IMG/VR virus record: IMGVR_UViG_3300021403_000001
Span: 1-57,886 of that record
Length of the DNA stretch: 57,886 bases
From: a virus
Lineage: Duplodnaviria; Caudoviricetes
Strand: one strand, 5' to 3'
Below, in pieces: positions 4,624-40,950 of the stretch. The stretch's first letter is position 1. Every line of letters begins with the position of its first letter. Made by a program: the position numbers and the translations under genes. Under the pieces are notes generated by a model, which worked only from the letters and a program-made list of their open reading frames with translations, had not been told where the DNA came from and ran no database searches.

Positions 4624-5772
4624 TTAGGTGTCGCTCGCCGACGCGACGAACGCGGTGAAGATTCCCCACTCCTTCAGATTTCCAGCGAGGTTCTTCTTGG
4701 CGATCTTGGCGAGGCCGTAGGCCATCTTGATGCCGGCGCCGCGGAAGAACTGATAGTCGTCTTCCTTGAGGAACGTCGGAGTCGGCGCGCGGCCCCAGCA
4801 ATGAGCCATCGCGGACTGCCCGCAGATGAACACCGGAGCAACCTGCCCCGCCGAACCGCCGGCCGTGGTGTAGAAGGTCGGCAGACGGATATCCATCTCG
4901 GGGATTTCCCGGATGATCATGCCGCTGTAGATCAGATCGCCGTCCTGGAAGAGCGGGTTCTTGTCCATTCCGTTGCCTTCACGGGCGCGAGCCTGGGTGT
5001 TGGCATTGATGATGGTGGTGTCCAGCTGAAGATCGCGGAAGGCATTCGACCCTGCGAACACCATGAAGTATTCGCGGTTGGTGTTCTTCACCATGTAGGG
5101 GCGAATGCGCGGATTGGCCTTCTTCGCCAGCCGCTTCGCCTTCAGGAGTGTCGCTGCGGAGAGCGTCATGCCGGAGGTGATGTTGGCCATCGAGGAGGCG
5201 AAGTTGCCCGCCACGAGGTTGCCGGTTGCGCCGCCGATCAGAACGCGGTCAGCGTTGTCCGTGATCCACGTATTGCGTTGGGCAGCGGTCGCCGCATCGA
5301 ACAGGATGCCGTTGACACGCTGGCCACCAGCCGAACCGAGGCCCGCAGGCGCCGCTTCAGCGGGGAGCGCATAGAAGGCATCGATGATCTCGTCACGGAT
5401 GAGCTCCTTGCCCCAGTCTTCAAGCAGGGGCTTGGCTTCCGCGAAGATGTCGATGGACGACTTCTGCTCTTCCGCGTTGTTGATCTTGATGGCGTTGCGG
5501 CCCCAATCGATGTACGCGCGGAAGCCGTAGTTATCGATGGTCTCTTCGTTGCCGACCAGGATGCCGGAACCGACAGGCTGGTTCTTCAGGCGAGCCACGA
5601 GCGGCACGTTGATCTGCTCGCCGCCCTTCTTGAGGTCGTTGACGACGCGGATGATCGCGTTCGCCGATGCGCTCATGTAGGGCCCGAAGAGATTTGCGCG
5701 GATGTATTCCCGCGTGATCTCTCGACGGAACTGAATGAGTTTATTGTTGACTTGAACGGTAGTTGAGGCCAC
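4624..5772 (-). CDS. Major capsid protein (N4-gp56/DUF4043-like)
   Basis: 382 aa; GTG start after AAGGAG; LVGNEETID and NPLFQDGDLIYSGMIIRE motifs; follows the scaffold gene. Confidence 0.85.
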   Translation of the reverse strand: MASTTVQVNNKLIQFRREITREYIRANLFGPYMSASANAIIRVVNDLKKGGEQINVPLVARLKNQPVGSGILVGNEETIDNYGFRAYIDWGRNAIKINNAEEQKSSIDIFAEAKPLLEDWGKELIRDEIIDAFYALPAEAAPAGLGSAGGQRVNGILFDAATAAQRNTWITDNADRVLIGGATGNLVAGNFASSMANITSGMTLSAATLLKAKRLAKKANPRIRPYMVKNTNREYFMVFAGSNAFRDLQLDTTIINANTQARAREGNGMDKNPLFQDGDLIYSGMIIREIPEMDIRLPTFYTTAGGSAGQVAPVFICGQSAMAHCWGRAPTPTFLKEDDYQFFRGAGIKMAYGLAKIAKKNLAGNLKEWGIFTAFVASASDT

Positions 5773-16162: not shown

Positions 16163-16402
16163 TTACTTGTTTTGCAGTCCGGCCGCTAAGCGCTTCAGCA
16201 ACTTTGACCGTCTGCGCCATTCAACGCGGTCCTGATCGGTGCAAACCGTATTGTTCGCGGCGATGTCTTCGTAATGCTCGGAAACGTAGATCAGATTTGC
16301 CCGCGTGGCTGGCTTGTCGAAGAACTCGTCTTCCAGCCATTCGCGATCTCGCTTCGCCTTGTGCGAGAGAATTGCTATCGGCTCGGAAAGTGTTTGTGGC
16401 AT
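16163..16402 (-). CDS. Hypothetical protein
   Basis: 79-aa ORF; TAGCAT -10-like element just upstream. Confidence 0.5.
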   Translation of the reverse strand: MPQTLSEPIAILSHKAKRDREWLEDEFFDKPATRANLIYVSEHYEDIAANNTVCTDQDRVEWRRRSKLLKRLAAGLQNK

Positions 16403-17109
16403 GCAGCGATGCTATCACAGATGCTTAACGGCGTTAAGTGTTGCGTTCTGCTTGATGCACGGCGCTGATAAGCCGCAGAATGAACTCGTCCGCATGAACG
16501 CCACTGCGATCAGGACCGGCGCCGATGATGCCGGGCTTATGGCGGGCCCACCAACTCTCGCGATTGGCCTCGTACCAACGGCGGACTTTGGTGGCGATCT
16601 CATCACCTCTCGCTGTTGGTTCCGCTGCGATCACGCCGTCTCGTCCTTTTTCTTGGGAGGATCATTTGGGTGTTCAGATGTACCGCTGCCACCAGCACGG
16701 TTGGTAGTAAGTGCGCCAACCAAAACGACACGCGGTTGCCTTGACGAAGGCCGATGCGATGGCGTGACCATTGAGGCGATTGAGACCATATAGAACGGTC
16801 CACGATTGCAGAAAGCGCTCACCACGCCTCAACTGCTCATCAATTCGGGCCAACGTGATCATGCGCTTTCAGGCTCTCCACATCTCGGCGACGACCCAGC
16901 CGAGCCAAATCCATGACGCAAGCAACCAGTCAATACGCATGTCGCTGGGCGCGCGCTGTACTCGCGAGCGCAGCATGAAGCGTATCGTAGGCCGTCGCTC
17001 GATCCAATCGATGGCGACGAATCGGCCGGCCTCCAAGACAGAGCCACGCGCCCATGGTTGGAAAATATACCCGGAGCGGAAGCATGCTCATCTCCTCTGC
17101 CTACACGGT

Positions 17110-21398: not shown

Positions 21399-22745
21399 TC
21401 ATGCCCTCTCTGAAAATCGCATCGTCGCGCCGTCGAATGTGAGGGCGCGTTGCTGGAAGGCTTTGCCGCGTCGTCGCTTGAGGCAAATCACTTCGGCAAG
21501 CCCTTGGCATCGGTGAAGTTCGCTCTGCCATTTGGTGAGCGCTTCTTCACCGCCGCGTTGATCCGGCTTATTGCGGCGTAGCCAGTTGGCTTTTTGCCAG
21601 AGCGCGAGACACCAATCCGAATCCCTCTCCAGCGAGGGTGCATCAGCGTCAAGAATGTCGGGAGTAGGATCGTCTCGCCGCTGAGCTCCGCGCGTGCGCT
21701 GGGCCAATAGGATGACCGGAACCTTCAGCGCCTTGGCCATCCGTTTAAGATCACGGGTAATCTCAGCCATCCGTTCGAACCGATCACGATGTTTGCCTTC
21801 GGCCCTGATCTTGTCGAGTTGATCGATCACCACCAAACTCAATCCGCCTTTGTGCTTCATGGCCATGCCCATGGCTTTGATCTGGCGAACGGACATTTCC
21901 TCTGCGTCCAGAATGTGGAGCGGCATTTGATTGAGCGTCTTGCCAGCGGCAACAATCTGATCCCATTCGAAGGCGTCGAAACTTCCTTCGTGAACTGCTG
22001 AAACCGAGACGCCGGATAGCGCGGCGATCTCTCGCGCGGCCATTTGCTCTTGGCTCATTTCCATCTGGACATAAAGCACGGGGCGGCCTGCTCTGGCGGC
22101 GTGCGAGGCAATTTGCGTGGCGAGGGCGGTTTTCCCATCGGCTTGGGAAGCTATTATTGCCCCGAGGTCCCCGCCCAGCATCAGCCCCAGGATTTCATCG
22201 AGCGGCCCTATCCCGGTATCCGTGCCGGATAGCAGTTCGCCTTGATGTGCGGAATTGGCGGCCTTGAGAACGCTTTCCGCAACTTCCCCTATCGACTTGG
22301 GGCGAAGCGGGCTAGCCGTTGACGTGATCGCCTGAAGATGCTGGGCCGCCTCTGCGCTGATATCGTCCGCGCTGCGGTCGTTCTTCCCGGTTTGCGTGGT
22401 GATCCACTTGGCGAGGGATTGGAGGCGCTTCAGTGCCGACCGCTCGGCCAGCATTGGCGCATAATCGGTGGCGCTGCCGTCTTCCTCTGCACTGGCCTTC
22501 AGGGCCATGATGATGGCAATGGTGGGGTTGCCTTCGTATTCCTCCGGAAGAGAGGCTTGCAGAGCGGTTGTTGTTACCACCCTGCCCCGCTCGGATAAGT
22601 CTCGTATCGCGGTGTAAATATCGCGATGGGATTCCACGGCGAGACAGTCCGCCGTAACCATGTCGTTGACGTGCCACACGTCATGGGGCGAGCGCAGCAG
22701 ACAGCCGATGAAAGCGCGCTCGGTGGCTGACATGTCCGGGATCAT
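21399..22745 (-). CDS. dnaB: Replicative helicase, DnaB family (divergent)
   Basis: ERAFIGCLL N-domain; TGIGPLDEILG, ASQADGKT, EMSQEQM, VVIDQL and ITRDLKRMAKALKVPVILLAQ motifs. Confidence 0.85.
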   Translation of the reverse strand: MIPDMSATERAFIGCLLRSPHDVWHVNDMVTADCLAVESHRDIYTAIRDLSERGRVVTTTALQASLPEEYEGNPTIAIIMALKASAEEDGSATDYAPMLAERSALKRLQSLAKWITTQTGKNDRSADDISAEAAQHLQAITSTASPLRPKSIGEVAESVLKAANSAHQGELLSGTDTGIGPLDEILGLMLGGDLGAIIASQADGKTALATQIASHAARAGRPVLYVQMEMSQEQMAAREIAALSGVSVSAVHEGSFDAFEWDQIVAAGKTLNQMPLHILDAEEMSVRQIKAMGMAMKHKGGLSLVVIDQLDKIRAEGKHRDRFERMAEITRDLKRMAKALKVPVILLAQRTRGAQRRDDPTPDILDADAPSLERDSDWCLALWQKANWLRRNKPDQRGGEEALTKWQSELHRCQGLAEVICLKRRRGKAFQQRALTFDGATMRFSERA

Positions 22746-24827: not shown

Positions 24828-25883
24828 TCACGCGACCTCCGCGCAATGCGCCAGCCATAAATCATTGAAATCTCGCCCGCACGGCGGCTCAGCCGCAATC
24901 GTGCAGCTAACGCCCTCCGCAAGCAGCCGTGTCCGCAGCGCGAGTGCGGCTTTGCGCCCTGCCGGAACGGACGGCGCGAAGTCGTTGCCCTGCTTTCGGA
25001 TAGGCGCGTCGCCGTCAGGGGCAATCACGCAATGCTCAACACCAAGCGGGGCTTCAAAGCCAATCAGTCCCGAGGTTGATAGTGCGGCCCAGGTCGGCTG
25101 CTTTTGGCCGGTGAGAAGCCAATATCCTAAGGCGCTCTCAATACCCTCCCCGACCGCAATCTTACTGGCGAGGCCGCCAATGCGAACCGCGCCACCCGCG
25201 ACAGGTCCCAAACCAAGGCGCGCGGTTTCAACGTCGGCCTTGCGCCCATCTTCACGGAGAAAAGTGCGCCAAACTCCCGTTAGATCGCCGCTGATGTCAT
25301 CAACCCGGCAGACCAATACGGGATAGCGCTTGCTCTTGCCGGGGTATGGCAGCGCAGGGTGAAATCTCAGGACCGACGGCCATTCGGGAAAGATAAGCCC
25401 TCTCTGACAGAGATAGGTTGCCGCGAGCGTGTCCTTTAGCGGCTCGGATGCGTTCCAGATCGCCAGTGAAGTTTCGCGCGTGTTGCTCTCGTAACGCTCT
25501 TGCTCGGCTTCCCGCGCCCGCTGGGCGGACTCTGCTTCAAGCCGCTTCCTGTTGCGCTCGGCTTTCTCAGCTTCGCTCAGTGGCTTAGCTGGGCCGGTGG
25601 GGCACGGCTCGCCGGTCAATTGCTCAATCGCCGTCTTCCATGAAATGTTGCCGAGATGCATGGCTAGGGTGATCGGCGACTCCCCTCCTCCGTGGCCGCG
25701 ACAGTGCCACTTGCCTTTGCCGAGGTTGATGCCGAGCCGATCACGGCCGCCGCAAAAGCAACACGGGCCCATCCATTCGCTCCCGGCCCGCTTCAGCTTC
25801 GCGCCGAATTGTTGAGCGGCAACGAGGAGCCCGACGTTTTCGGCGCGCTCTTTCCAAGCCGAGAATGCGCGGTCGTGGATCAT
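24828..25883 (-). CDS. DNA primase (Zn-finger plus TOPRIM)
   Basis: GPCCFCGGRDR...WHCRGH; VGEGIESAL; IAPDGD; GRDFND. Confidence 0.82.
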   Translation of the reverse strand: MIHDRAFSAWKERAENVGLLVAAQQFGAKLKRAGSEWMGPCCFCGGRDRLGINLGKGKWHCRGHGGGESPITLAMHLGNISWKTAIEQLTGEPCPTGPAKPLSEAEKAERNRKRLEAESAQRAREAEQERYESNTRETSLAIWNASEPLKDTLAATYLCQRGLIFPEWPSVLRFHPALPYPGKSKRYPVLVCRVDDISGDLTGVWRTFLREDGRKADVETARLGLGPVAGGAVRIGGLASKIAVGEGIESALGYWLLTGQKQPTWAALSTSGLIGFEAPLGVEHCVIAPDGDAPIRKQGNDFAPSVPAGRKAALALRTRLLAEGVSCTIAAEPPCGRDFNDLWLAHCAEVA

Positions 25884-26434: not shown

Positions 26435-26976
26435 GCGGCATCCTTTGCGAACAGTTCGCCGGGCCGCACAAGTTGGGCTTGCTTCAGTACACCAGCCAAG
26501 TGCCAGACTATGCCAATGGCCTCAGCGGCGTCTTTTGACTTGAGATTGGGATAAAGCTGCTTGGCGAGTGCGAAGCTTTCCTCTTTCGAAGCGCGACCGT
26601 TGCCAGTAAATGACTTCCGCCACGATGCCTGATGCGCCTCAATCAAGGGAATGTTGAGCGTGGCCGCGATCTCGACCGCGTGCGCCCGCAGCCCGTAGAG
26701 CCGCAGATATGTCTTCATCGTGACGGGGTTGTGCGTCTCGCCGGGCTTGGCATTCGACCGACGATCCGGCGCGCGAATGTCAGTCACAAGCGGCTGCTCA
26801 ATGCAGACGTGCTGCACGTCATGGGCAACCAGCATCGCGCGATACCAGACGCGGAAACCTGCGAATATCTCCGCGTCCTCTTTGCCCTTCGGCCGGAAGG
26901 CCTCAGCATGCACGATCTTGTCGCCGCTCAGAAATGCGGCTCCCGTAGTCGTGGCGATGTCGAAGCCTGCCAGCAT
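26431..26976 (-). CDS. RuvC-like Holliday junction resolvase
   Basis: GFDIATTTG, CIEQP, WRKSFTGNGRASKEE and DAAEAIGI motifs. Confidence 0.75.
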   Translation of the reverse strand: MLAGFDIATTTGAAFLSGDKIVHAEAFRPKGKEDAEIFAGFRVWYRAMLVAHDVQHVCIEQPLVTDIRAPDRRSNAKPGETHNPVTMKTYLRLYGLRAHAVEIAATLNIPLIEAHQASWRKSFTGNGRASKEESFALAKQLYPNLKSKDAAEAIGIVWHLAGVLKQAQLVRPGELFAKDAA

Positions 26977-27544: not shown

Positions 27545-27898
27545 CTATGCTGCTTCTAGTTTTTTTAAACGCCATCCAATCTGATCGCTGGTGTTGCGCG
27601 TGATCGTGTAGCCAAGGCGCTCCAGCTTTTTGCGCAACCGCCCCATGATAATGGAGAGCGTGTTTAGGTTTTCGGGGCCGCCGTCTGCGCGGTCGTGATA
27701 AACATACTTGGCTAGGTCATCGAGAGTAGCGAAGTGGCGCTTGTGCCAAAGCGCGTTGAAAATACGACCCTCAGTGCATGTAAGATGAACCGCGCGCCCG
27801 TCTGCCTCAAACACCCGCGTTATGCTCTCCCAAACGAGCTTGCGCGGCATTGGGTGGCCGCAGAGCGGGCAATGACAATGGATCATGGGCGCATTCAT
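27545..27898 (-). CDS. OmpR-type winged-helix protein with an N-terminal CxxC
   Basis: CPLCG; VHLTCTEGRIFNAL; NTLSIIMGRLRKKL. Confidence 0.7.
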   Translation of the reverse strand: MNAPMIHCHCPLCGHPMPRKLVWESITRVFEADGRAVHLTCTEGRIFNALWHKRHFATLDDLAKYVYHDRADGGPENLNTLSIIMGRLRKKLERLGYTITRNTSDQIGWRLKKLEAA

Positions 27899-28230
27899 GC
27901 CGCAGCCCCGAGCACTTGCCGCAAAAGCTCGTTGGTGGCCGTCTCGCGCTGAATATTCTGCTCTTGCGCGTATTGATCGACCAGCCGGCAGATTTCAGGG
28001 CTGAGCGTTACGCCGGTTTCTTCAATGATGCTGAAGTCCCGCGAGCGGCGGCTGTTCTTCTTGATCGCGCCCCGTTCCTCCAAATCCTGCATGATGTGGG
28101 CCACGCGCCCGCGCGATTTCACGCCGATGCCCTGCCCCATTTCGAGATATGACGGCATCACTCCCCGCTCACCGCGATAGAAGCGGATGAACTTGAGCAG
28201 TTCAAGCTGGCGCGGGGTGAGGTTGCTCAT
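27895..28230 (-). CDS. LexA-type DNA-binding domain protein (no peptidase domain)
   Basis: LTPRQLELLKFI...GVMPSYLEM...SRGRVAHIMQDLEERGAI. Confidence 0.8.
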   Translation of the reverse strand: MSNLTPRQLELLKFIRFYRGERGVMPSYLEMGQGIGVKSRGRVAHIMQDLEERGAIKKNSRRSRDFSIIEETGVTLSPEICRLVDQYAQEQNIQRETATNELLRQVLGAAA

Positions 28231-28763
28231 GCCACCTTCCGATGAAGGCGCAGCGCGCTTTGCTCACCGCGCGTGCCGTGGCCGGTGCCGAGTAGGAAAT
28301 GCGGCTTACAATATGAGCTACTGCCGAAAGGCAGGTGCCCGCAGTACGTCATCACGTCGGGCGACGGATCGCTGCCGATGGGCCACCTACACGTCTTGTC
28401 CGTGAGCTCCATGATCTTGACGCCAAGGGGCTCAATGCGTGGCTCTTCCTTGCAGACGAACGGCTGGGGCCGAACTTGTGGGCCGCGATTGATCGCCTGC
28501 ACCTGAGCGCCGACTCCCATGGCAAAACGACTTGCCCGCTTGTCGCGCTTCGCTTGGGCCGCGCGTTCGTCACGCGCTTTTTTCAATTCAGCGCGGCGCT
28601 CTGGCGGGTTTGGCTCTTTGCGCTTTAGGCCGAGCCTGCAGCATTGGCGAGAGATGGCTCCCTTGGTCACGCCGAAGCGATCGGCCATCTTCTGGTAGGT
28701 AGCACCTTCCGCGAACATCTGTTGGAAGTTAGCTTTGGCGCGGTCGTCCCAATCAATCTTCAT
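28227..28763 (-). CDS. gcrA: GcrA-like cell-cycle regulator
   Basis: N-terminal DW...GVTKGAISRQCCRLGL; C-terminal IMELTDKTCRWPIGSDP...YCG...YCKPH. Confidence 0.8.
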   Translation of the reverse strand: MKIDWDDRAKANFQQMFAEGATYQKMADRFGVTKGAISRQCCRLGLKRKEPNPPERRAELKKARDERAAQAKRDKRASRFAMGVGAQVQAINRGPQVRPQPFVCKEEPRIEPLGVKIMELTDKTCRWPIGSDPSPDVMTYCGHLPFGSSSYCKPHFLLGTGHGTRGEQSALRLHRKVA

Positions 28764-29559: not shown

Positions 29560-29763
29560 TCATGCGGCACCTTCAACGGATTGAGCCGCGTGGCGTTTAT
29601 CGGCATCGGCAATGGCTCGAGAAAGCGCGCTGGGCAAGTTCCGGCCAAAGACCGCGCATCGTGTCGAATGCGTCAGTCCCTTGCGGAGAACTTCAAAACC
29701 GGTTGCGGTTCGGAGAACCCAGTGCGTGGAGTTCTCGTGCATGATGTCGGCTTCGCTGGTCAT
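29560..29763 (-). CDS. Hypothetical protein
   Basis: Coupled to cro (ATGA). Confidence 0.6.
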   Translation of the reverse strand: MTSEADIMHENSTHWVLRTATGFEVLRKGLTHSTRCAVFGRNLPSALSRAIADADKRHAAQSVEGAA

Positions 29764-29981
29764 GCGGCCGTCTCATGCTCTGGCCAAGGAAGGTCCGGCC
29801 TCAACCCTTTCGCGGTCACCGTTCCACCGGTGGCCTTCTCGATCAGGAGAGCCAGTTCGGCCGAAACCCGGCCGCTATCCTTTGCCTGCCAAATAGACTG
29901 CTGCTTCACCCCACACGCCTCGGCAAGTTTTGCCTGCGAGCCGAGTTGCGAGATGGCCGTTTCGAGCAGTTCGCGTGTCAT
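29760..29981 (-). CDS. cro: Cro-like repressor (YdaS family)
   Basis: GSQAKLAEACGVKQQSIWQ...IEKATGGTVTAKGLRPDL; divergent from CI. Confidence 0.85.
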   Translation of the reverse strand: MTRELLETAISQLGSQAKLAEACGVKQQSIWQAKDSGRVSAELALLIEKATGGTVTAKGLRPDLPWPEHETAA

Positions 29982-29993
29982 AGCGAACCCTCT

Positions 29994-30058
29994 TAACAGG
30001 TGAAACAGTGAAACTCAACAGTTTTTTATGTCAGGACCGGCAACAGGAGAACCTGTAT
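29994..30058. promoter_or_regulatory. cro/cI operator region, ACAG-N6-CTGT sites
   Basis: CAACAGgagaacCTGTAT (30041-30058), CAACAGttttttATGTCA (30016-30033) and the weaker TAACAGgtgaaaCAGTGA (29994-30011). Confidence 0.65.
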
Positions 30059-30070
30059 GCTGTCCCGACC

Positions 30071-30715
30071 ATGGAACCCACGGAAGTCGGCGCCGTCATT
30101 CGCGCAAAACGAGAGGAAAAAGGTTGGTCGCAGGGCGATTTGGCCCGCGCGATTGGCATCAAGCAGCAATCGATCGATGCTGTGGAAAGCGGCCGCACCG
30201 CCAAGAGCAAACATCTGCCTGAAATCATTGCCGAGCTCGGTATACCGCCTGAAAGGGTCGGCCTCCCGAAACAACCGGCCGGCGACGGCATGATTCTGCA
30301 GCCGCTCACTCGAGACCGCGATTTCCCGATTTATGCCTCGGTTGAGGGCGGCCCCGGCGAGATCATCAGATCCACCGAGCCGGTCGATTGGTACCCGCGC
30401 CCTGCCCCGGTCGCGCACGTCCGGGATGCGTACGGCCTGTTCGTGGTCGGTGATTCCATGGCGCCGGAGTTCGAGCCCGCGGATATCGCCCTGGTAAACC
30501 CTATCCTGCCGCCATTAGCGGGCAAGCCGTGCATTTTTTATGCGGAACGGCAGGGAGAAGCCAAGGCCACCATAAAGCGCTTCCTGCGGGCCTCCCCGGC
30601 CGTCTGGCACGTGTTCCAACACAACCCGCCGCGGGGCATGGCCCACGAGTTCACCCTCTCGCGTAAGGAGTGGTCGATATGCCACCGCGTGCTTGGAAAG
30701 TACTACCCGCAATAG
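30071..30715 (+). CDS. cI: CI repressor (HTH plus S24 peptidase)
   Basis: WSQGDLARAIGIKQQSIDAVESG; VVGDSMAPEF; ATIKR. Confidence 0.9.
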   Translation: MEPTEVGAVIRAKREEKGWSQGDLARAIGIKQQSIDAVESGRTAKSKHLPEIIAELGIPPERVGLPKQPAGDGMILQPLTRDRDFPIYASVEGGPGEIIRSTEPVDWYPRPAPVAHVRDAYGLFVVGDSMAPEFEPADIALVNPILPPLAGKPCIFYAERQGEAKATIKRFLRASPAVWHVFQHNPPRGMAHEFTLSRKEWSICHRVLGKYYPQ

Positions 30716-30955: not shown

Positions 30956-31522
30956 CTATCGTCCTACAATCCTAGCGCATTGAAAACTATAGACTTTATC
31001 ATCGAAAGCGATTCCACCCGTGATTATGGCCGTCTCAGGCCGACCGCCGATCACTTGCTCCACGGTCGGCATTTGGCCACCAAAATACGCCAAAACCTCT
31101 GGCAGATCGGCCAACAGATAGCCCTTTCCCGCATTGTTAACCGCCATCACAACCTGATGCAGTAACTTGGCCTCGAGACTGTCCTTAGCGTGAATTGGAG
31201 TAGGCTTCCGTTCCTCAGGAGCAATCTGGCTGATCGGAACGCCAGCGAGAAGCGCCGCTTTCCATCCTTTAGGAGGCGGCCACGAAACACCCCACTTGGC
31301 CAACGTGTCACGAGTCCATGCGCCGCCCGGAGATTTGGCCGATTCGATTTCTTCAGCGGTGACAATACGGAATGGCGTTCCGGTGACTTCTCCGCAAACC
31401 GCGCGTTCCAGGTCATCCCAATTGTCGATCTTGGTGCTTTTTCTGCGCCTTGGCCTTCCGCCTGGGTACATCTGCTCTGATGCGCGCGGTTGTTTTGCTT
31501 TAGACCAATTGAGCTTGACCAT
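30956..31522 (-). CDS. Hypothetical protein
   Basis: RBS GAGAGGA; GGAWTRDTLAKWGVSWPPPKGWK motif. Confidence 0.65.
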   Translation of the reverse strand: MVKLNWSKAKQPRASEQMYPGGRPRRRKSTKIDNWDDLERAVCGEVTGTPFRIVTAEEIESAKSPGGAWTRDTLAKWGVSWPPPKGWKAALLAGVPISQIAPEERKPTPIHAKDSLEAKLLHQVVMAVNNAGKGYLLADLPEVLAYFGGQMPTVEQVIGGRPETAIITGGIAFDDKVYSFQCARIVGR

Positions 31523-31619
31523 TTCCTCTCTCCACGACTAGCAGTGTTTTATCAAAGGTTATTTGGTCTAAGTTATTGATCTTAAGGTCTAAAACCTCAG
31601 TTCAGATTGGTGTATCCCC

Positions 31620-31835
31620 AAAGACCCCCCTACCCCCCATGGAACCATGGGAAGGCGGGAGATCGTTGGGTGTCCGAAACCTTCAGACGAGTTGGTTGCA
31701 GAGCCCCAAGGCACCTTACGGTTAGCCTGTCCTCAGTACCCCAGCCGCGCCGTAGGACTTTCGACCCTGCGCGTGCCGCCCTTACTGGGTGAGCCCCGAC
31801 GCTTTCGCGCCTCGGCAATGGTGACGGCGGAAGAG
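31620..31835 (-). ncRNA. Candidate structured RNA with GNRA hairpins ending in G6-UA-G6
   Basis: GGCGC-GAAA-GCGUC, AGGGUC-GAAA-GUCCU, ACC-GUAA-GGU, UCUGAA-GGU-UUCGGA and CCCAUGG-UU-CCAUGGG; GGGGGGUAGGGGGG at 31625-31638. Confidence 0.55.
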
Positions 31836-31856
31836 CCATACCATAAATTTTGCCTG

Positions 31857-31899
31857 TTACAAACTTTCCTGTTGACTTAACAGTTTTAGCTGTTAGATT
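31857..31899 (+). promoter_or_regulatory. PL-like early promoter with operators
   Basis: TTGACT-16-TAGATT with extended -10 TG; perfect TAACAG-N6-CTGTTA (31878-31895) and TTACAA-N6-CTGTTG (31857-31874) match the cro/cI sites. Confidence 0.75.
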
Positions 31900-31928: not shown

Positions 31929-32920
31929 ATGACCGCACCAGCCCATTCCTACTACGTCGTCATGATCGACTACGGCCGCAAAGGTCGCGAAGCGATTGTT
32001 GACCCGGAAGTGACGCGCCGTGAAGTCGTCTCCAGGATCAAGTCCGGCGAGTATGGGCCGATCAACTTCATCCACTTCGTGGAAGTCTATGCAGACGGAT
32101 GGGGCCGCTCCACCGACGTGACTAATGAGGTGTTGAACGAGGCTGATTTCTACAATCAGCAGGCAGCGGAGTAGCAGCGATGGCAACCGTCAAGGTTCAA
32201 GCCCGCTATCTCCAATCTGGCGATCAGGTCGGCTCCGGTGAAATCGTGACATGGGTTGGCGCTGGCGTTCGCACGCCGCGCGGCAAGGTCGAAGTGGTCC
32301 TTGAGAAGGACGGTAGCCGCCGCCTCGCTATCTGGGGCGCGTCCACCACGATCAACGTCCGGAGGGCTGCGTAATGCTCAGTCTCAGCCAGCGCCTTTTC
32401 CTATCCGCCCTCCTCGCCATCAATGAGGCAATGGTCGAGAGTTTCCCCGATCACCCGGAGGCTCCGAAACTGCGCGAAGTCATAGACGCAGTGAAGCGCG
32501 CCTTCGCGCCGCGCCTTCCGACGCTGATCATCGCCGATCCTTATTTCGACGCGGATGAACTTGAGATCGGAGCAAGCGCATGACCCGCGCCGAACTGACC
32601 ATTGACCTCTTTGGCCTCATCTGCCTCGTCGCGATCTGGTTTGCTGTGTGGGTGGTGCTGCCATGAACGCGCCAGCAGCAAAGCAGCAAGAGCCGACGTT
32701 CTTTACTGGGACCAGCTTCGCGGTCGGTGAAATCGAACTCGGTCTCCGCGTCCTCGCCGCGAAAACCCGCGACCTCAAGCGCGGCAATGAGACCGGCAGC
32801 GCCGTGGATCAGAAGCTGGCGGCTGAGGCCATCTCGAAATTGGCAGGGCAGATCGCCGTGCTCGCGGACACGCTCGTTCGCGTCAGTTGTGCTCACCTAA
32901 ATCGGAGGCCCAGGCCGTGA
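31929..32920 (+). other. Run of small early genes (31929-32174, 32180-32374, 32374-32583, 32663-32920)
   Basis: Tightly coupled short ORFs after the PL-like promoter. Confidence 0.6.
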
Positions 32921-33855
32921 CCCAACAGGCTGACCAATACTCATTCTGGCGTCGCCGCCTCACGGGCGAGATTGTCCCGATCCATGACAGCGAGCCGCAA
33001 GCCGGTTTCTATCGGATGAAAAGCCGCGACGGGGAATGGAAGCCCGTAGCGTACTGGTTTACCCGAGATGGCAGCTTGCGTTGCCGGATAGGCACATCAG
33101 ATGTCACCGACCAGATAGCTAACGAGCGCTGGCCATGGGCATCGAAGCACCCGATTACCCACGAAGTTTACAAGGCCGTCATTGCTGGCGAAGCGTGGCC
33201 CGATCAGCATGAGTCCGTCATTCGCGACCGTGCCAACTCTGTCGGCGCCCCTGACGAAGTGTCTTTCGATGGGCTCAAGGATCGCATTGAGGACCTGGCG
33301 CGCGATGCCGAGCGCCTGATTGGCGAAGGCGCAGCCAAGGATCAATCCGCAGCAGACCGCGCGTCCGACCTCGCGAACCGCTTGGCTGAGCTCCAAAAGC
33401 AGGCCGATGCTGCGCGCATTGTCGAAAAAAAACCCCATGATGACGCCGCGGCCGCCGTGCAGGCCAAGTGGAAGCCGATTCTTGCAGCGGCTGATGTCTA
33501 TAAGCGCATCAAAGCTGCGGTGATCACGCCGTTCCTGGTAGCAGAGGATGCCAAGCGGCGCGCAGCCGAAGAAGCAGCACGCAAGGCCGCTGCTGATGCC
33601 GCCAAGGCTGGCCAGCCGATACCGGATGCGCCGCAAATGCAGCGCTCGGCACCGAAGGCGGGAAGTGGTGGACGCCGATCTGTCGCGCTACGCACCGTGC
33701 GCGTCGTTACCATTACCGACCGCGCCGCGTTGCTCGCGTTCTTCTCGGGCAATGAGCAGATCACCGAAGTCCTGCAGAGACTCGCTGAGAAGGCATCCGC
33801 CGCTGGCGTTGACGTGCCCGGCATTTCCGTCACCGAAGAACAGAGGGCAGCATGA
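32917..33855 (+). CDS. Hypothetical recombination-module protein (coiled coil)
   Basis: PQAGFYR...PVAYW N-domain; EKKPH...VQAKWKP helical region; directly upstream of bet. Confidence 0.7.
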   Translation: MTQQADQYSFWRRRLTGEIVPIHDSEPQAGFYRMKSRDGEWKPVAYWFTRDGSLRCRIGTSDVTDQIANERWPWASKHPITHEVYKAVIAGEAWPDQHESVIRDRANSVGAPDEVSFDGLKDRIEDLARDAERLIGEGAAKDQSAADRASDLANRLAELQKQADAARIVEKKPHDDAAAAVQAKWKPILAAADVYKRIKAAVITPFLVAEDAKRRAAEEAARKAAADAAKAGQPIPDAPQMQRSAPKAGSGGRRSVALRTVRVVTITDRAALLAFFSGNEQITEVLQRLAEKASAAGVDVPGISVTEEQRAA

Positions 33856-34715
33856 GCACGGCCGTTGCGAATGTCTCGGAACCCCCCGGCAGATCACTCT
33901 TGGCGGACATGGCTGGCCGCTATCACATGGAGCCGCAGAAATTTGCGGCGACCTTGCGCGCCACGGTGGTTCCAAAGACCGCCTCGAACGAGGAGTTCGC
34001 CGCATTCCTGATGGTGGCGAAGCACTACAACCTCAATCCGATCACCAAGGAAATCTATGCCTTCCCGAAGCAGGGTGGAGGCATTCAGCCAATCGTCTCG
34101 GTGGATGGCTGGGCCAACCTGATCAACTCGCATCCGCAGTGCGACGGTTTCGAGTTCGAAGATCATCTCAACGATAGCGGAGATTTGGTTTCGATTACCT
34201 GCAGGATGTATCGAAAGGACCGTTCCAAGACCACGACCGCGACCGAATACATGGTCGAATGCCGCCGCGAGACATCAACCTGGAAGCAATGGCCGCGCCG
34301 GATGCTGCGTCACAAGGCGCTGATTCAGGCCGCACGCTATGCCTTCGGATTCGCCGGCATTGTCGATCCGGACGAAGCAGAGCGCTTCACTACCTCACCG
34401 CAGCGCGTTCGCGATGTCACGCCGCGCGAGGAGCCGCCAGCACCGCCGCAGGTGGCCGCTATTGAGCCACCAAAGCCCGCACAGGCCACACCAGCACCTC
34501 AGACTGCTCAACCAGTCGACGATGTGCCGAGCCCCATGCAGGACACAGACGGTTTTTTGAGGATCATCACGGCAAAGCTTATGGCGGCGGAAGCCGTCGA
34601 AGGCCTCAACGAAATCTGGGATCGTTACGTCACGCCAGCCGAGAAAGACCTATTCCCGACCGATGTTGATGACCTCGTGTCCGTGTTCCGCAAGCGGGAG
34701 AGCGAGCTGGCATGA
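33852..34715 (+). CDS. bet: RecT/Bet single-strand annealing protein
   Basis: YNLNPITKEIYAFP, PIVSVDGW and WKQWPRRMLRHKALIQAARYAFGFAGIVDPDEAER motifs. Confidence 0.9.
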   Translation: MSTAVANVSEPPGRSLLADMAGRYHMEPQKFAATLRATVVPKTASNEEFAAFLMVAKHYNLNPITKEIYAFPKQGGGIQPIVSVDGWANLINSHPQCDGFEFEDHLNDSGDLVSITCRMYRKDRSKTTTATEYMVECRRETSTWKQWPRRMLRHKALIQAARYAFGFAGIVDPDEAERFTTSPQRVRDVTPREEPPAPPQVAAIEPPKPAQATPAPQTAQPVDDVPSPMQDTDGFLRIITAKLMAAEAVEGLNEIWDRYVTPAEKDLFPTDVDDLVSVFRKRESELA

Positions 34716-35488
34716 CGCGGGCACTCGTCACCATCCGCTGCGAGGAAGATCGGTTGCGGGCGTCCCGCTGGGCTTTGCGCGCACGACCAGGCATGCGCAT
34801 TGAGTTCAAGGAAGCCAAGCGCACGGTCGATCAGAACGCGCGGATGTGGGCAATGCTTACCGATGTTGCCAGTCAGTTGCCGTGGCACGGCATGAAGCTG
34901 ACGCCAGACGACTGGAAAATCCTGTTCCTTGATGCGCTCAAGCGCGAGATCAGAGCAATTCCGAACTTGAACGGGGACGGTTTTGTTAATCTCGGAAAGT
35001 CGTCTTCTGATCTGACGCGCGCCGAAATGAGTGACCTGATGGAGCTAATCTCCGCGTTCGGCACCAGCCACGGGGTCACATTCCACGACGACCAAGAAGA
35101 TTCCAATTCGACCGAACCCGCCCAGTCTCCCCAAGACTCTCAGGATCGGTCGGATAAGCCCGAGGCCAGCCTGCCTAGTTCGGTCTCGGGCAACCAATCG
35201 TCCGCAACTCCAGCCCGTGCGGATGAAGATGGGAGCGGTGCTTCACCCCCGACGCCGCTCCCATCGCTTCCGGAGGGCTGGGAAATTACCTACGCGGCAG
35301 CATTGCGGCGCGCTCAGAAGCCCATCAGCTTGGACAAGCTTGCAAGCCAGTGGTGGGCAACGCATGGCGGCTGGGAAACACATAAGAACGGCCCCAACGC
35401 GACAACCGCAGCGGCGATCTACACCGCCTTCAAAACCAACTTTGGCAACAAAGACGCGATTGAGCGCGACCTTCGGGAGATTTTCTAG
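34712..35488 (+). CDS. ninB: NinB/Orf recombination protein with a C-terminal extension
   Basis: RTVDQNARMWAMLTDVASQ...SSSDLTRAEMSDLMELISAFG..HGV. Confidence 0.8.
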   Translation: MTRALVTIRCEEDRLRASRWALRARPGMRIEFKEAKRTVDQNARMWAMLTDVASQLPWHGMKLTPDDWKILFLDALKREIRAIPNLNGDGFVNLGKSSSDLTRAEMSDLMELISAFGTSHGVTFHDDQEDSNSTEPAQSPQDSQDRSDKPEASLPSSVSGNQSSATPARADEDGSGASPPTPLPSLPEGWEITYAAALRRAQKPISLDKLASQWWATHGGWETHKNGPNATTAAAIYTAFKTNFGNKDAIERDLREIF

Positions 35489-38320: not shown

Positions 38321-38896
38321 ATGGACGCCATCCCAGATCTTCCGCCATACACCGTCCTGGAGAACGGCTACATCCATGGAACGTGGTTCTGTGGGCGTCC
38401 GACCAAGAAGTATTACGGATCCTTCCCCTATTCCTTCTGGCCGCGCGCTCAGCAAGTCCTCCGGCCATGGGGAACGCTGCTGCATTGGTTCAGCGGCCTT
38501 GAGCAGCCCGAGCCCGGCATCACCACGGTTGACGGCAACCCCGAGGTGACGCCCTCTGTTGTCTGTCAGGGCACGAACCTGCCGTTCGCCGATTGCACCT
38601 TCGACGCCTCGTTTGCGGATCCTCCCTATTCGCCCAAGGATTCCGAGCGCTACGGGTTGCCCTATCCGTCCGCCACGAAGGTCATCGCCGAGCTGGCGCG
38701 CGTCACTAAACCGGGCGGCAAGATTGGTCTGCTTCACGAGTTCATTCCGCCGACCGGCGGAAAGCGGTGCTTGCCCGTCAAGCTACTCGGAATCATCGGC
38801 GTGATGAACGGCCCACAGAAACGGATCCGGCTCTTTGCGATCTATCGCAAGCTGGCGACGCAAACAGATTTATCCATCGGTTTGGGCGAGAAATGA
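38321..38896 (+). CDS. Amino (m6A/m4C) methyltransferase-like protein
   Basis: LHWFSG, LPFADCTFDASFADPPY and ELARVTKPGG motifs. Confidence 0.7.
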   Translation: MDAIPDLPPYTVLENGYIHGTWFCGRPTKKYYGSFPYSFWPRAQQVLRPWGTLLHWFSGLEQPEPGITTVDGNPEVTPSVVCQGTNLPFADCTFDASFADPPYSPKDSERYGLPYPSATKVIAELARVTKPGGKIGLLHEFIPPTGGKRCLPVKLLGIIGVMNGPQKRIRLFAIYRKLATQTDLSIGLGEK

Positions 38897-39642
38897 AACC
38901 CCGCACCCTCATTTGGTTTTCGACCGGAGCCGCCAGCGCGGTCATGACGCAGCTTATGCTTCGCGAGGACCGAGAGACGGCGATCGTGGTCCGGTGTGAG
39001 ACGGGCAACGAAGACCCGGACAATTACCGCTTTGAGGCCGACGTGATGCGCCACCTCAACACGTCGATTACCGTCCTAAAGTCTGACGAGTTCGATAACG
39101 TCCGGGACGTGTGGAAGCGCGAGCGCTACATGGCCGGCATCAATGGCGCCTCCTGCACGCGTGCCATGAAGGTTGAGCCGCGCCTCGCATTCCAGCATCC
39201 GACAGACCGCCATGCCTTCGGCTACACGGCCGACAAGGCGGACAAAGAACGCTTTAAGCGCCTGCAAGAGAATTACCCCGAGTTGGTGGTTCGCGCGCCT
39301 CTGATCGAACAGGGGATTAACAAGGCCAATTGCTTGGGCAGGATAGAGCGTTGGGGCATCGCGCTTCCCCGCTCCTACGCGATGGGCTTTCCGAACGCCA
39401 ATTGCCTGCAAAGCGGATGCGTGAAGGGCGGCTTGGGCTACTGGTCCCGGTATCGCCATTACTTTCCGGAAGCGTTCGCCAAGACCGCCGCCCAGGCTCG
39501 CGAGATCGGCGCGCGGCTGGTCAAATACAAAGGCGAGCGCATCTTCATTGACGAGATTCCAGCCGACTATCCGATGATAGACGCGACCCTTCCGGCCTGC
39601 GATTTTCTTTGTCACTTGGCTGAGGCGGAGCCCGTCGAATGA
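38893..39642 (+). CDS. PAPS-reductase / adenine-nucleotide alpha-hydrolase-like protein
   Basis: WFSTGAASAV PP-loop-like motif; CTRAMK; GFPNANCLQSGCVKGG; CDFLC. Confidence 0.7.
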   Translation: MKPRTLIWFSTGAASAVMTQLMLREDRETAIVVRCETGNEDPDNYRFEADVMRHLNTSITVLKSDEFDNVRDVWKRERYMAGINGASCTRAMKVEPRLAFQHPTDRHAFGYTADKADKERFKRLQENYPELVVRAPLIEQGINKANCLGRIERWGIALPRSYAMGFPNANCLQSGCVKGGLGYWSRYRHYFPEAFAKTAAQAREIGARLVKYKGERIFIDEIPADYPMIDATLPACDFLCHLAEAEPVE

Positions 39643-39805
39643 TAATTAGCAAAGCGTATTCATGCCCGTGCGGTGATTGGCACCCAACTCCCAAATGGCT
39701 CAAGTGGTTCGGTAAGGCGCCCTATCGTCGCGCGCTATATGCGTGGCCGCACATCGGTGGCGGCTGGGATGGCTGGGAATATGCCCTAACCTCGGGATTT
39801 GGTGC

Positions 39806-40147
39806 ATGAATCTGCCCGCCCACATCACCCCCGCCGACTTCGCCAAGCAGTACGGCGAGAGCGAAAGACGTGTGCGCGAGCGTGCGCGGCGCCTTGGCGC
39901 GTGCCGGATTATGGGCAATCGTATGGTCCTACTGCCCCAGGACGTAGCTGCCCTATTGGAGGACGCCAAGCCATGCCCCTCAAAATCTTCAAACGAGGTC
40001 GCGTCTATCACTTCGCAGGAACCATCGCAGGTAAGCGAGAGCGTGGTTCGACGGGTCTTGAGACCAGGGAAGCCGCGCTTGCATTTGCGGCCGAGTACGA
40101 AGCCAAGGCAAGAAAATGTCGTGAGCTTGGACCAGAGGCGGTCCTGA
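39806..40147 (+). CDS. Putative excisionase
   Basis: ITPADFAKQYGESERRVRERARRLG; overlaps the integrase start. Confidence 0.55.
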   Translation: MNLPAHITPADFAKQYGESERRVRERARRLGACRIMGNRMVLLPQDVAALLEDAKPCPSKSSNEVASITSQEPSQVSESVVRRVLRPGKPRLHLRPSTKPRQENVVSLDQRRS

Positions 40148-40950
40148 CGTTCGAGGATGCCGTGCTGAACTACTTCGCCGCGGAAAAGACCGAGCGCTTC
40201 ATTGCGAAGCCCCGTGCCTATTTCAAGAACACCCTTGTGAAGGATATTTCGGCTGGCGTGATCCGTCAGGCCGCGATCGACCTATATCCGGCTGCTGCGG
40301 CATCCACGCGCAACCGTCAGGTCATCGTCCCGGTGCAGGCCGTCATTAACCACTGCGCTGACTTGCAGCTCTGCGCCGCGATCAGGGTCAAACGGTTCCC
40401 GATCGACAAGAAGGAAAAGACGCCGGTTACGGTCGAGTGGGTGCGCGCCTTTGCCAAGGGCGCCCCGCCGCACCTTGCCGCCCTTGCCCTCTTTCTGTTC
40501 GGAACCGGCGCCCGCATCTCGGAAGCCCTGAAGCTTCGATGGGAGGACGTGAACCTTCAGGCCGGGACGGCCAAGCTTGTGCAGGGCAAGCAGCGCAACG
40601 AAAGAACCGCTAGGCTACATCCCGAGGTCATCGCCGCAATGGCGAACTTGAAGCGCTACAGGGGGCGCGGTCCGTTCTTCTATCTGGAACGGTCATCGGC
40701 CTACGGTGCCTGGGAGCGCGCCTGTAAGGCCGCCGGCCTGCCCTATCTCTCCTTCCATTGCTGCCGGCACGGCTTCGCCACGACGCTGCTGCACAAGGGC
40801 GTGGACGTTCTGACGGTCGCCAAGCGCGGCGGCTGGAAATCGGCCCGGCATGTCTTTGAGACCTACGGGCACGCTAGCGAGGACGCATCGGTCGTGGACA
40901 AGATTTTTGACGAGCCGATGCCCGCGAAAAAGAGTAAGATGGCATCATGA
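39973..40950 (+). CDS. int: Tyrosine integrase
   Basis: TGARISE (R), HCCRH (HxxR), GGW and TYGH (Y); N-terminal arm-binding RGSTG. Confidence 0.92.
   Translation: MPLKIFKRGRVYHFAGTIAGKRERGSTGLETREAALAFAAEYEAKARKCRELGPEAVLTFEDAVLNYFAAEKTERFIAKPRAYFKNTLVKDISAGVIRQAAIDLYPAAAASTRNRQVIVPVQAVINHCADLQLCAAIRVKRFPIDKKEKTPVTVEWVRAFAKGAPPHLAALALFLFGTGARISEALKLRWEDVNLQAGTAKLVQGKQRNERTARLHPEVIAAMANLKRYRGRGPFFYLERSSAYGAWERACKAAGLPYLSFHCCRHGFATTLLHKGVDVLTVAKRGGWKSARHVFETYGHASEDASVVDKIFDEPMPAKKSKMAS

Follow-up and report, generated by a model that had tools for sequence, protein, structure and literature searches.

The 57,886-bp stretch of DNA analysed here (the window) has terminal repeats and represents an entire viral record (IMG/VR record IMGVR_UViG_3300021403_000001; Caudoviricetes). 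A 406-nt gap lies between open reading frame (ORF) 30956-31522 on the minus strand and ORF 31929-32174 on the plus strand, and the predicted minus-strand RNA at 31611-31831 in this gap is, judging from homology and covariation, a member of an undescribed, conserved and pseudoknotted RNA family carried by temperate phages that infect soil alphaproteobacteria. Elements of this general kind, i.e., a phage immunity-region RNA or a terminator-ended structured leader, are known, while this family and its architecture are new. An earlier reading made from the letters of the window (the sequence-only reading) had also placed a structured RNA on this strand, taking it for a candidate R-loop replication origin or, as a fallback, for a leader of ORF 30956-31522. 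The elements of the RNA and of the sequence that follows it are listed below.

31611-31831, minus strand: match to covariance model R1, comprising the whole RNA and 9 nt beyond the U tract
31774-31817, minus strand: helix a:a' (UGCCG at 31817-31813 with CGGCA at 31778-31774), enclosing hairpin hp1 and strand b; read by eye for the window
31798-31811, minus strand: hp1, with a GAAA loop in the window; read by eye
31740-31789, minus strand: pseudoknot helix b:b' (CCCAG at 31789-31785 with CUGGG at 31744-31740), crossing a:a'
31746-31773, minus strand: hairpin P3, with a CGCGC/GCGCG stem, a conserved internal loop, an inner GGG/CCU stem and a GAAA loop
31729-31735, minus strand: unpaired UGAGGAC at the junction of b' and P4, in nearly invariant columns
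31709-31728, minus strand: hairpin P4 (AGG/CCU and ACC/GGU, 3 + 3 bp; GUAA loop)
31667-31708, minus strand: P5 (UGGG at 31708-31705 with CCCA at 31670-31667), closing the variable P6
31623-31664, minus strand: P7, a long terminal hairpin of about 21 bp in the minimum-energy fold, the 3' strand of which holds G6-UA-G6 (31638-31625)
31620-31624, minus strand: UCUUU tail after P7, the presumed 3' end of the RNA
31575-31620, minus strand: segment B, which repeats segment A (the P5 and P6 stretch) directly and in degenerate form; its first 4-5 nt (UGGGG) are able to replace segment A in pairing with the 3' strand of P5

Homologues were collected starting from loci that encode relatives of the 188-aa product of ORF 30956-31522, which gave two nhmmer matches to the RNA region, and further ones were obtained by running a G-tract pattern and a stricter three-part pattern on IMG/VR contigs. 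A first viral pattern (GGGGTCG...GCG) was discarded, as none of the 53 loci that it returned was a family member. Model R1 (225 positions, 57 pairs) was built from a 33-sequence alignment with the structure derived by eye. Its 35 distinct matches, together with six from a 5'-core-only scan and the deposited phage record OM868082.1, gave 42 distinct members with scores of 68.8-223.7 bits, among which the window scored 119.9 bits (E about 1e-34) over model positions 1-225 of 225. Apart from OM868082.1, members came from IMG/VR phage contigs and from Hyphomicrobiales genomes. Genomes of eleven species matched the pattern (Hoeflea, Aliihoeflea, Pseudaminobacter, Limoniibacter, Bradyrhizobium, Ensifer, Roseibium, Aureimonas, Mesorhizobium, Pseudochrobactrum and a Hyphomicrobiales metagenome-assembled genome), and four Pseudochrobactrum replicons in the plasmid collection carried the RNA. 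A single copy was found in the window and in each of five carrier genomes. Within the order of one carrier, the RNA was present in 3 of 151 sampled genomes, including the carrier used as the centre of the sample, and this sporadic presence fits carriage on prophages.

The member in OM868082.1 ('Synechococcus phage Yong-M2-251'; locus L259) was full length (172.1 bits) and occupied an unannotated gap at 16184-16406 of the complement. Both this record and PP438429.1, each labelled as a Synechococcus phage, contain a full-length member and the RecT / RNA / DUF5131 layout that is seen in Hyphomicrobiales prophages; because all other organism-named carriers are Hyphomicrobiales, the Synechococcus host label may deserve a second look. 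BLAST comparison of the RNA of the window with deposited phages gave no match, while a query from the majority class of the family matched two records. An Rfam search, one of the checks suggested with the sequence-only reading, found nothing at the gathering threshold of Rfam 15 in the whole window or in 12 loci that included five family members, and at E values up to 10 the window and its homologues gave chance-level hits (RF01074, 16.7 bits against a cutoff of 40; RF02450, 13.3 against 60; RF01119, 12 against 40). No tRNA or tmRNA was detected on a scan of the window. In the literature, no description of this RNA was found, and a preprint (10.64898/2026.09.22.753630), to the extent of its accessible text, deals with other RNAs.

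From 5' to 3' the family shares the order a, hp1, b, a', P3, b', single strand, P4, P5 closing P6, P7 and UCUUU. Since b lies between a and a' and b' follows a', helices a:a' and b:b' together describe an H-type pseudoknot. Compensatory changes were noted in all five pairs of helix a. Helix b:b' had been left out of the model and thus provides an independent check on the structure; 84.6% of its cells were paired, with changes on both sides in 3 of 5 pairs. The most conserved block of the family was P3 (99.5% and 94.0% paired for its two stems), the loop of which is usually GAAA. P4 was 99.2% and 96.8% paired, with compensatory changes in 5 of 6 pairs, and was separated from b' by a single strand that is conserved family-wide as GAAAC-N-GAGGAC. 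P5 was 87.3% paired in the 42 members, all four pairs being compensatory, and P6 was missing from one member (L255). Over all modelled pairs, 91.5% of 2322 cells were paired in the 42-member alignment as opposed to 45.7-56.2% when partners were slid by 1-3 columns; the corresponding values for 35 members were 90.9% of 2120 cells and 44.0-56.5%. Changes on both sides were seen in 42 of 57 pairs (42 members) and in 43 of 62 pairs (35 members), and none of 500 shuffles of either alignment reached any of the covariation measures. Thus, the covariation that the sequence-only reading had named as a check is strong, and the three GNRA-capped hairpins that it had described on the minus strand (GAAA at 31806-31803, GAAA at 31762-31759 and GUAA at 31719-31716) are confirmed and have the support of the family model. 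The loop of hp1 is variable in kind, being a 7-nt UGCAAUU of the T-loop kind in most members and part of a GNRA-capped or other hairpin in the subclass to which the window belongs. The family also provides a clear example of a covarying pseudoknot in which GNRA and T-loop-type caps are interchangeable. Loops of these kinds, together with the strongly conserved junction nucleotides, point to a possible binding or sensing module, and a conserved, covarying domain such as a riboswitch sensor would have was indeed present in the pseudoknot, P3 and P4 with their near-invariant junctions.

The choice of strand was borne out by comparison of folds. Full-length folds of 35 members were more stable for the RNA strand than for its complement in every case (means of -101.1 and -76.2 kcal/mol), as expected from G-U pairs, and the same was true of the 5' domain in 34 of the 35. 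The window on its own is mildly unusual (RNAfold, minus strand, z = -1.92 with 4 of 100 shuffles as stable; plus strand, z = -1.54), and the comparative evidence is decisive. A structured minus-strand RNA, as claimed in the sequence-only reading, is accordingly supported by homology, covariation and strand asymmetry alike. Several other accounts of the same letters were set aside. Thus, coding potential was rejected because frames across the RNA were open in only 11 of 34 loci and because G-U asymmetry and compensatory changes argue for RNA. A hammerhead ribozyme (CUGAUGA...GAAAC) was rejected since the letters concerned are those of a covarying pseudoknot strand and are not conserved, while a fold like that of hepatitis delta virus differs in strand order. 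Mimicry of tRNA through the T-arm-like hairpin with loop UGCAAUU does not hold for the subclass of the window, in which a GNRA-capped or other hairpin stands in its place.

The G6-UA-G6 stretch reported in the sequence-only reading is present at the end of the structured RNA, and in the family it is one strand of P7. In the 42-member alignment, the 19 modelled pairs of P7 were 91.6% paired and 12 of them compensatory. Variation of the partner strand (31664-31650 in the window) was almost only between C and U; thus, columns 248-250 of alignment A5 each held CG or UG in 42 of 42 sequences. The inner stem covaried freely, column pair 263:325 being GC in 20 sequences, AU in 15 and GU in 4. In OM868082.1 the tracts read GGUAGGG-UA-GGGGUG, and as each changed G faces a changed A or U partner, all 19 of 19 pairs are kept. 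The spacers between the tracts were UAA, AA, UUU or A in loci L252-L257. Compensation on the partner strand and variation of the spacers together indicate that the helix is conserved rather than an uninterrupted run of G. Folding of P7 gave a mean of -33.8 kcal/mol for the RNA strand, with -28.1 for the window, and -16.7 for the complement, the RNA strand being better in 35 of 35 members; the complement folds much less well because many G-U pairs become A-C. After the stem, TCTTT was found in 28 of 35 members and CTTTT in four more. The stable GC-rich hairpin expected of an intrinsic terminator is thus present. When a pattern of a G tract followed by TCTT was applied more widely, a C-rich strand upstream was found to pair with the tract in 60 of 111 other matches in unrelated phage loci (9 or more of the first 12 bases of the tract, in the minimum-energy fold), which indicates that a G-rich hairpin with TCTT is a common ending element. 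An arrangement that loosely recalls the ending of P7 (CUCCC...GGUAGGGGGG) was also noted at 26620-26690 of Bartonella plasmid pBGR3 (NC_012847.1; L258), just upstream of a helix-turn-helix (HTH) regulator gene.

Beyond the U tract, segment B copies the 5' strand of P5 and the P6 of its own locus, in the window (31575-31620 compared with 31671-31708) and at the corresponding positions of 34 further loci. Within a locus, segments A and B were more similar than shuffled or cross-locus pairs, so that the copies vary together from phage to phage; their local alignment scores averaged 19.5 as opposed to 11.9 for shuffled B, and 14 of 35 loci had no cross-locus pair with a higher score. The helix formed by B and the 3' strand of P5 was 89.9% paired in 35 members, with compensatory changes in 3 of 4 pairs, and P5 itself was 86.2% paired in the same members; having the 3' strand of P5 in common, the two helices are mutually exclusive. 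Beyond its first 4-5 nt, segment B keeps the letters of A and has lost the G residues needed to fold. A diversity-generating retroelement as the source of the A and B repeats was rejected because the differences are not adenine-specific, and segment B as an invading mimic of P6 was rejected because the complementary bases are lost in B. Farther downstream, purine-rich repeats of the GGUAGA/GAUAGA type were noted in many loci up to the first start codon.

On the other side of the RNA, the gap contains promoter-like and operator-like sequences, and further operator copies lie beside the repressor gene.

31878-31895: operator-like perfect palindrome TAACAG-N6-CTGTTA (0 mismatches), overlapping the spacer of the rightward early promoter
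31872-31899, plus strand: rightward early promoter-like TTGACT-16-TAGATT, from a consensus scan
31857-31874: second, degenerate operator copy (3 mismatches), overlapping the TTGTAA -35 element of the RNA promoter
31835-31862, minus strand: putative RNA promoter, TTGTAA (31862-31857), 16 nt and TATGGC (31840-31835); a weak consensus match, read by eye
29994-30058: three further operator copies (2-3 mismatches) in the gap between the cro-like and cI genes

The putative RNA promoter is thus the TTGTAA-16-TATGGC of the sequence-only reading, with its TTGTAA overlapped by the degenerate operator copy; it was not called by the promoter consensus scan, and would place the start of the RNA near 31828. 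The operator pattern had 10 matches in the whole window compared with 6.95 expected by chance, so that the count alone is not significant, and the operator reading is supported because five of the ten matches sit in two regulatory gaps. Since the operators at 31857-31895 match the three sites in the cro/cI gap, one repressor probably controls both this gap and that between the RNA and the early operon. These five YAACAG-N6-CTGTTR copies, of which three adjoin cro/cI and the other two the RNA and the early operon, resemble the OR/OL layout of lambdoid phages. The proposal that the transcript starts beside repressor-type operators is therefore supported by the copies at 31857-31895. In many homologues, a clear TTGAC(A/G) -35 element was evident 45-60 nt upstream of helix a, amid inverted repeats that are phage-specific; inverted repeats that differ from phage to phage are what operators of different immunity types would be expected to show.

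The genes of the window that bear on the setting of the RNA are the following.

21399-22745, minus strand: DnaB-like helicase, in the leftward operon
24828-25883, minus strand: primase, in the leftward operon
29760-29981: Cro/YdaS-like gene, divergent from cI, heading the leftward operon with primase and DnaB-like helicase
30008-30715, plus strand: cI-type repressor (HTH_3 and Peptidase_S24), convergent with the RNA unit; likely start ATG at 30071
30956-31522, minus strand: 188-aa ORF with a small WPPPKGW-type domain, an accessory gene of this phage, downstream of the RNA on the same strand
31929-35488, plus strand: early operon, divergent from the RNA, with small ORFs, an exonuclease-like protein (32887-33855), RecT (33852-34715) and NinB (34712-35488)
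39799-40950: integrase

The primase and DnaB genes cited in the sequence-only reading are thus confirmed; they lie 5.7-10 kb from the RNA, in another operon and behind the immunity region. ORF 30956-31522 had no Pfam or PHROG family and no usable match in the protein atlas; residues of about 52-94 of its product, a segment of about 45 residues (GGWTR...WGV.WPPPKGWK), were common to proteins encoded in 40 viral loci, in one of which (L008) the WPPPKGW segment is fused to an HNH-like C-terminus.

Conservation of the setting was examined in 34 loci. A convergent gene for an HTH and S24 repressor was found within 4 kb downstream of the RNA in 22 of these, only 44-83 nt from P7 in five (L114, L177, L218, L221 and L241). 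Divergently upstream, a PDDEXK exonuclease was encoded in 13 of the 34 loci and RecT in 12. The genes that follow the RNA on the same strand were of several kinds, i.e., a WPPPKGW protein in four loci including the window, DUF5131 in four loci and in OM868082.1, and T5orf172/MUG113 with HTH in four, whereas the remaining loci had methyltransferase-like or HNH-like genes, identified by eye from translations, or no gene. From the varied genes between the RNA and the repressor gene, it follows that the RNA stands at the head of an accessory-gene slot, facing the repressor gene. It runs in the same direction as the cro/replication operon on the far side of the repressor, and its fixed place is beside repressor and recombination genes, not replication genes.

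Taken together, these features suggest a regulatory RNA of the immunity region that is ended or gated by its own hairpin, a proposal that we regard as about evenly balanced. An RNA of about 207 nt would be transcribed from a promoter among cI-type operators, in a control region that would also drive the divergent RecT/exonuclease operon. Its 5' two thirds would form a compact domain, in which an H-type pseudoknot with two inserted hairpins is followed by P4, and its 3' third would consist of P5/P6 and P7. P7 would most likely end most transcripts, or mark a processing site, and so release a stable RNA, while the variable accessory genes, here ORF 30956-31522, have no evident means of expression other than read-through past P7, which would run on into the convergent repressor gene in antisense. 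In this way, the element would act as a gate in the lysis-lysogeny region. That the pseudoknotted 5' domain, in addition, senses a small molecule or a protein of the host or phage, deciding between a stop at P7 and read-through, seems rather unlikely. If it were so, the lysis-lysogeny decision would have an RNA-level input that requires no cleavage of the repressor, and read-through would span the accessory genes and, in antisense, cI, towards the cro/replication operon.

Several observations weigh against a gated regulatory RNA. Like intrinsic terminators, attenuators and riboswitch platforms, the element is a structured promoter-proximal RNA ended by a GC-rich hairpin and a U-rich tail, and, as in attenuators and riboswitch platforms, the downstream genes have no visible promoter of their own. 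Unlike in those systems, the tail is only UCUUU, no convincing antiterminator was found upstream of P7, and the competing pairings, which involve segment B, are downstream of the hairpin, so that the arrangement is not that of a classical attenuator. The U tract (UCUUUGGG) is short, with 4 U in 8 nt in the window, and P7 was not listed by the terminator rule (5 in 8); P7 may thus be a weak terminator, or else a hairpin for processing or stabilisation. Among the downstream genes, no relationship or common theme was evident, i.e., the coherent regulon expected of a riboswitch was not seen, and the five loci in which the repressor gene follows the RNA without an intervening gene imply that gating of accessory genes is not the whole function. 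Further, no RNA run was found to contain the sequence, the matches listed being four DNA metagenomes, one of which may be the source sample, and the start site, 3' end and termination of the RNA are deduced from sequence features. The alignment, having been made with the model, leans towards the structure of the model, and it misplaces helix a and hp1 in the subclass of the window (about 9 of 42 sequences), for which reason these two elements were read by eye in the window.

According to the sequence-only reading, the G tracts would allow the transcript to remain in an R-loop, in the manner of ColE1 RNA II or mitochondrial CSB II, and thereby to open or prime an origin in AT-rich DNA. A G-rich stretch of RNA takes part in primer formation in both of these systems, and the stretch found here is likewise of the form G6-N1-2-G6, ends a structured transcript and has the polarity of a G-rich primer; the complementary string CCCCCCTACCCCC turned up mostly in the literature on mitochondrial genomes, where it is presumably the CSB-II element. 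Among the window proteins scanned, no initiator was recognised, though primase and DnaB are present. The AT-rich tract does exist, since GC content downstream of the RNA in most members was 0.41-0.48 compared with 0.56 for the loci, but the repeats assigned to it (TTAGACC twice and AATAAC twice between 31595 and 31558 on the minus strand) are specific to the window and not conserved in homologues. Similarly, the cumulative GC-skew minimum, proposed as a check, is broad and lies around 31.5-36 kb, where it coincides with the switch in gene direction and thus says nothing about an origin. Against an R-loop, the G tracts were found not as RNA free to hybridise or to form a quadruplex but as the base-paired 3' strand of a covarying hairpin with an almost purely pyrimidine partner strand; uninterrupted runs of G are not conserved, the interruptions in OM868082.1 being compensated and the spacers in L252-L257 varied; hairpins of this kind followed by TCTT are common in unrelated phage contexts; and the element is tied to repressor and recombination genes at a distance of 5.7-10 kb from those for replication. 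An R-loop origin is therefore very improbable, and the family shows that a G run may look like a primer-forming element and yet be no more than one side of a hairpin. The fallback, a riboswitch or protein-binding leader specific to ORF 30956-31522, came closer than the origin and proved too narrow. The RNA is directly upstream of this ORF on the same strand, with the start codon 103 nt beyond the G tract and no promoter-like site between P7 and the ORF in the consensus scan, and in L008, L017 and L020 the RNA is likewise followed by a relative of the ORF. Such relatives were, however, present downstream in only 4 of 34 loci, one copy (that of L008) being about 1.5 kb away, while other loci have unrelated genes or none, and of the 40 viral loci with the shared domain, the remaining 37 had no match to the model. 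There is accordingly little to recommend a leader dedicated to this one gene, which we consider scarcely credible.

A purely trans-acting RNA, in which the 5' domain would bind a protein, an RNA or a small molecule, P7 would be the terminator and the downstream genes would be bystanders expressed by leakage, is possible and is held only tentatively. Such an RNA would accord with the heterogeneity of the downstream genes, with the 5 of 34 loci that lack a same-strand gene before the repressor gene, and with a complex, conserved architecture of tertiary type that is independent of what comes after it. Abundant, terminated Brt RNAs of Bartonella, for which a role in trans has been proposed (PMC5387305), point the same way. 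In contrast, apart from the repressor and recombination genes, no conserved neighbour was found that could be a partner, no conserved complementarity to another region of the phage was found, and the two exclusive helices around P7 and segment B suggest that the read-through form matters. This reading overlaps with that of a gate at P7, and the two are not mutually exclusive. Another proposal is that P7 is mainly a bidirectional terminator, or a processing site of the RNase III type, that serves the convergent repressor transcript as well as the RNA unit, with the B helix as the base of a longer hairpin. RNase III typically needs about 21 bp of near-perfect duplex, the length of P7, and in read-through RNA the U tract and the next 3-4 nt would pair with an upstream A-containing stretch and the 3' strand of P5 (the 89.9% paired helix), extending P7 into a nearly continuous helix. 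The repressor genes that end 44-83 nt from P7 in five loci would be suitably placed. The complement of P7, as noted above, folds much less well than the RNA strand (-16.7 as opposed to -33.8 kcal/mol), in most loci P7 is separated from the repressor gene by other genes, and what amounts to a sub-function would leave the conserved 5' domain unexplained. As the main role of P7, this is decidedly unlikely.

The gated immunity-region RNA favoured here may be compared with RNAs of other temperate phages, the switches of which are textbook protein circuits; to our knowledge, RNA players are known in only a few, i.e., P4, P1/P7, N15 and lambda (OOP). The CI RNA of P4, the c4 RNA of P1/P7 and the CA RNA of N15 are immunity RNAs of about 70-80 nt that are cut from operon leaders and base-pair with repeats that overlap ribosome sites or cause termination. 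The present RNA is likewise a phage RNA from the start of an operon in an immunity region and has flanking direct repeats that begin with a short match to an internal stretch (segments A and B with respect to the 3' strand of P5). It differs in its length of about 207 nt, its pseudoknotted core, a shared complementarity of only 4-6 nt and the lack of pairing potential in the rest of segment B; moreover, no antirepressor family was matched among the downstream genes, and the combination of a small processed RNA with antirepressor or replication genes that marks the P4 CI type was not seen. Lambda OOP and the convergent-promoter interference of phage 186 are similar in that a short terminated transcript or a promoter points against a lysogeny gene. 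OOP overlaps its target, whereas overlap with cI would here require read-through, and most loci have intervening genes. The put sites of HK022, of about 70 nt, are present in two copies, one for each early operon, and suppress terminators; their RNAs, too, are structured and directly follow a promoter in a control region of the lambdoid type, while the RNA described here is present in a single copy on the strand opposite the early operon and has its own terminal hairpin.

Within the same bacterial order, the Brt RNAs offer a parallel. As described (PMC5387305), they are abundant, highly structured RNAs of 194-203 nt from a prophage-rich region, most conserved at the 3' end, with a suggested terminator/riboswitch element just upstream of poorly transcribed genes; plasmid pBGR3 carries one copy. 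They are reported always to precede an HTH gene on the same strand, as opposed to the convergent repressor gene seen here. They are a precedent for both gating and trans roles (PMC5387305). No homology was detected, the best match of R1 with filters off being 3.5 bits on pBGR3, a comparison made with this one record and not with the Brt sequences themselves.

A large folded RNA between the repressor gene and the early operators was thus found in phages and prophages, at least 42 in number, from alphaproteobacteria of soil or associated with plants. Its placement is constant across different immunity specificities and accessory genes, which makes a role in the control of lysogeny or of accessory genes testable, and one carrier (OM868082.1) is a deposited, cultured phage and hence open to experiment.

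A second, shorter type of candidate RNA was noted in other phage contigs, at L129 (3082-3204, minus strand), L125, L148, L188 (4076-4243, plus strand), L132 (4990-5156, minus strand), L123 (8418-8568, plus strand) and L196 (near 5100-5190, minus strand). Candidates of this type have a canonical T-arm-like hairpin (e.g., GGUUCAAAUCC), further hairpins and a C-rich/GGGGGUAGGGGGG/UCUUU ending like that of P7. A purine-rich direct repeat of 6-9 nt (e.g., CGAGGAACC in L132) flanks the T-arm-like hairpin on both sides, and in some loci its downstream copy could be a ribosome-binding site. With R1 they scored only 12.8-21.2 bits, and none had an Rfam match. Elsewhere in the window, a phosphoadenosine-phosphosulfate-reductase-like gene (PHROG 424; 38767-39642, plus strand) adjoins the integrase gene, and the leftward operon encodes a 178-aa protein and a DNA-binding protein at 28227-28763 and 27895-28230, both on the minus strand. 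The former resembles, by eye, a cell-cycle regulator of the GcrA type, while its only PHROG match was 'transcriptional regulator, D5-like'. The latter is like the N-terminus of LexA and lacks a peptidase domain.

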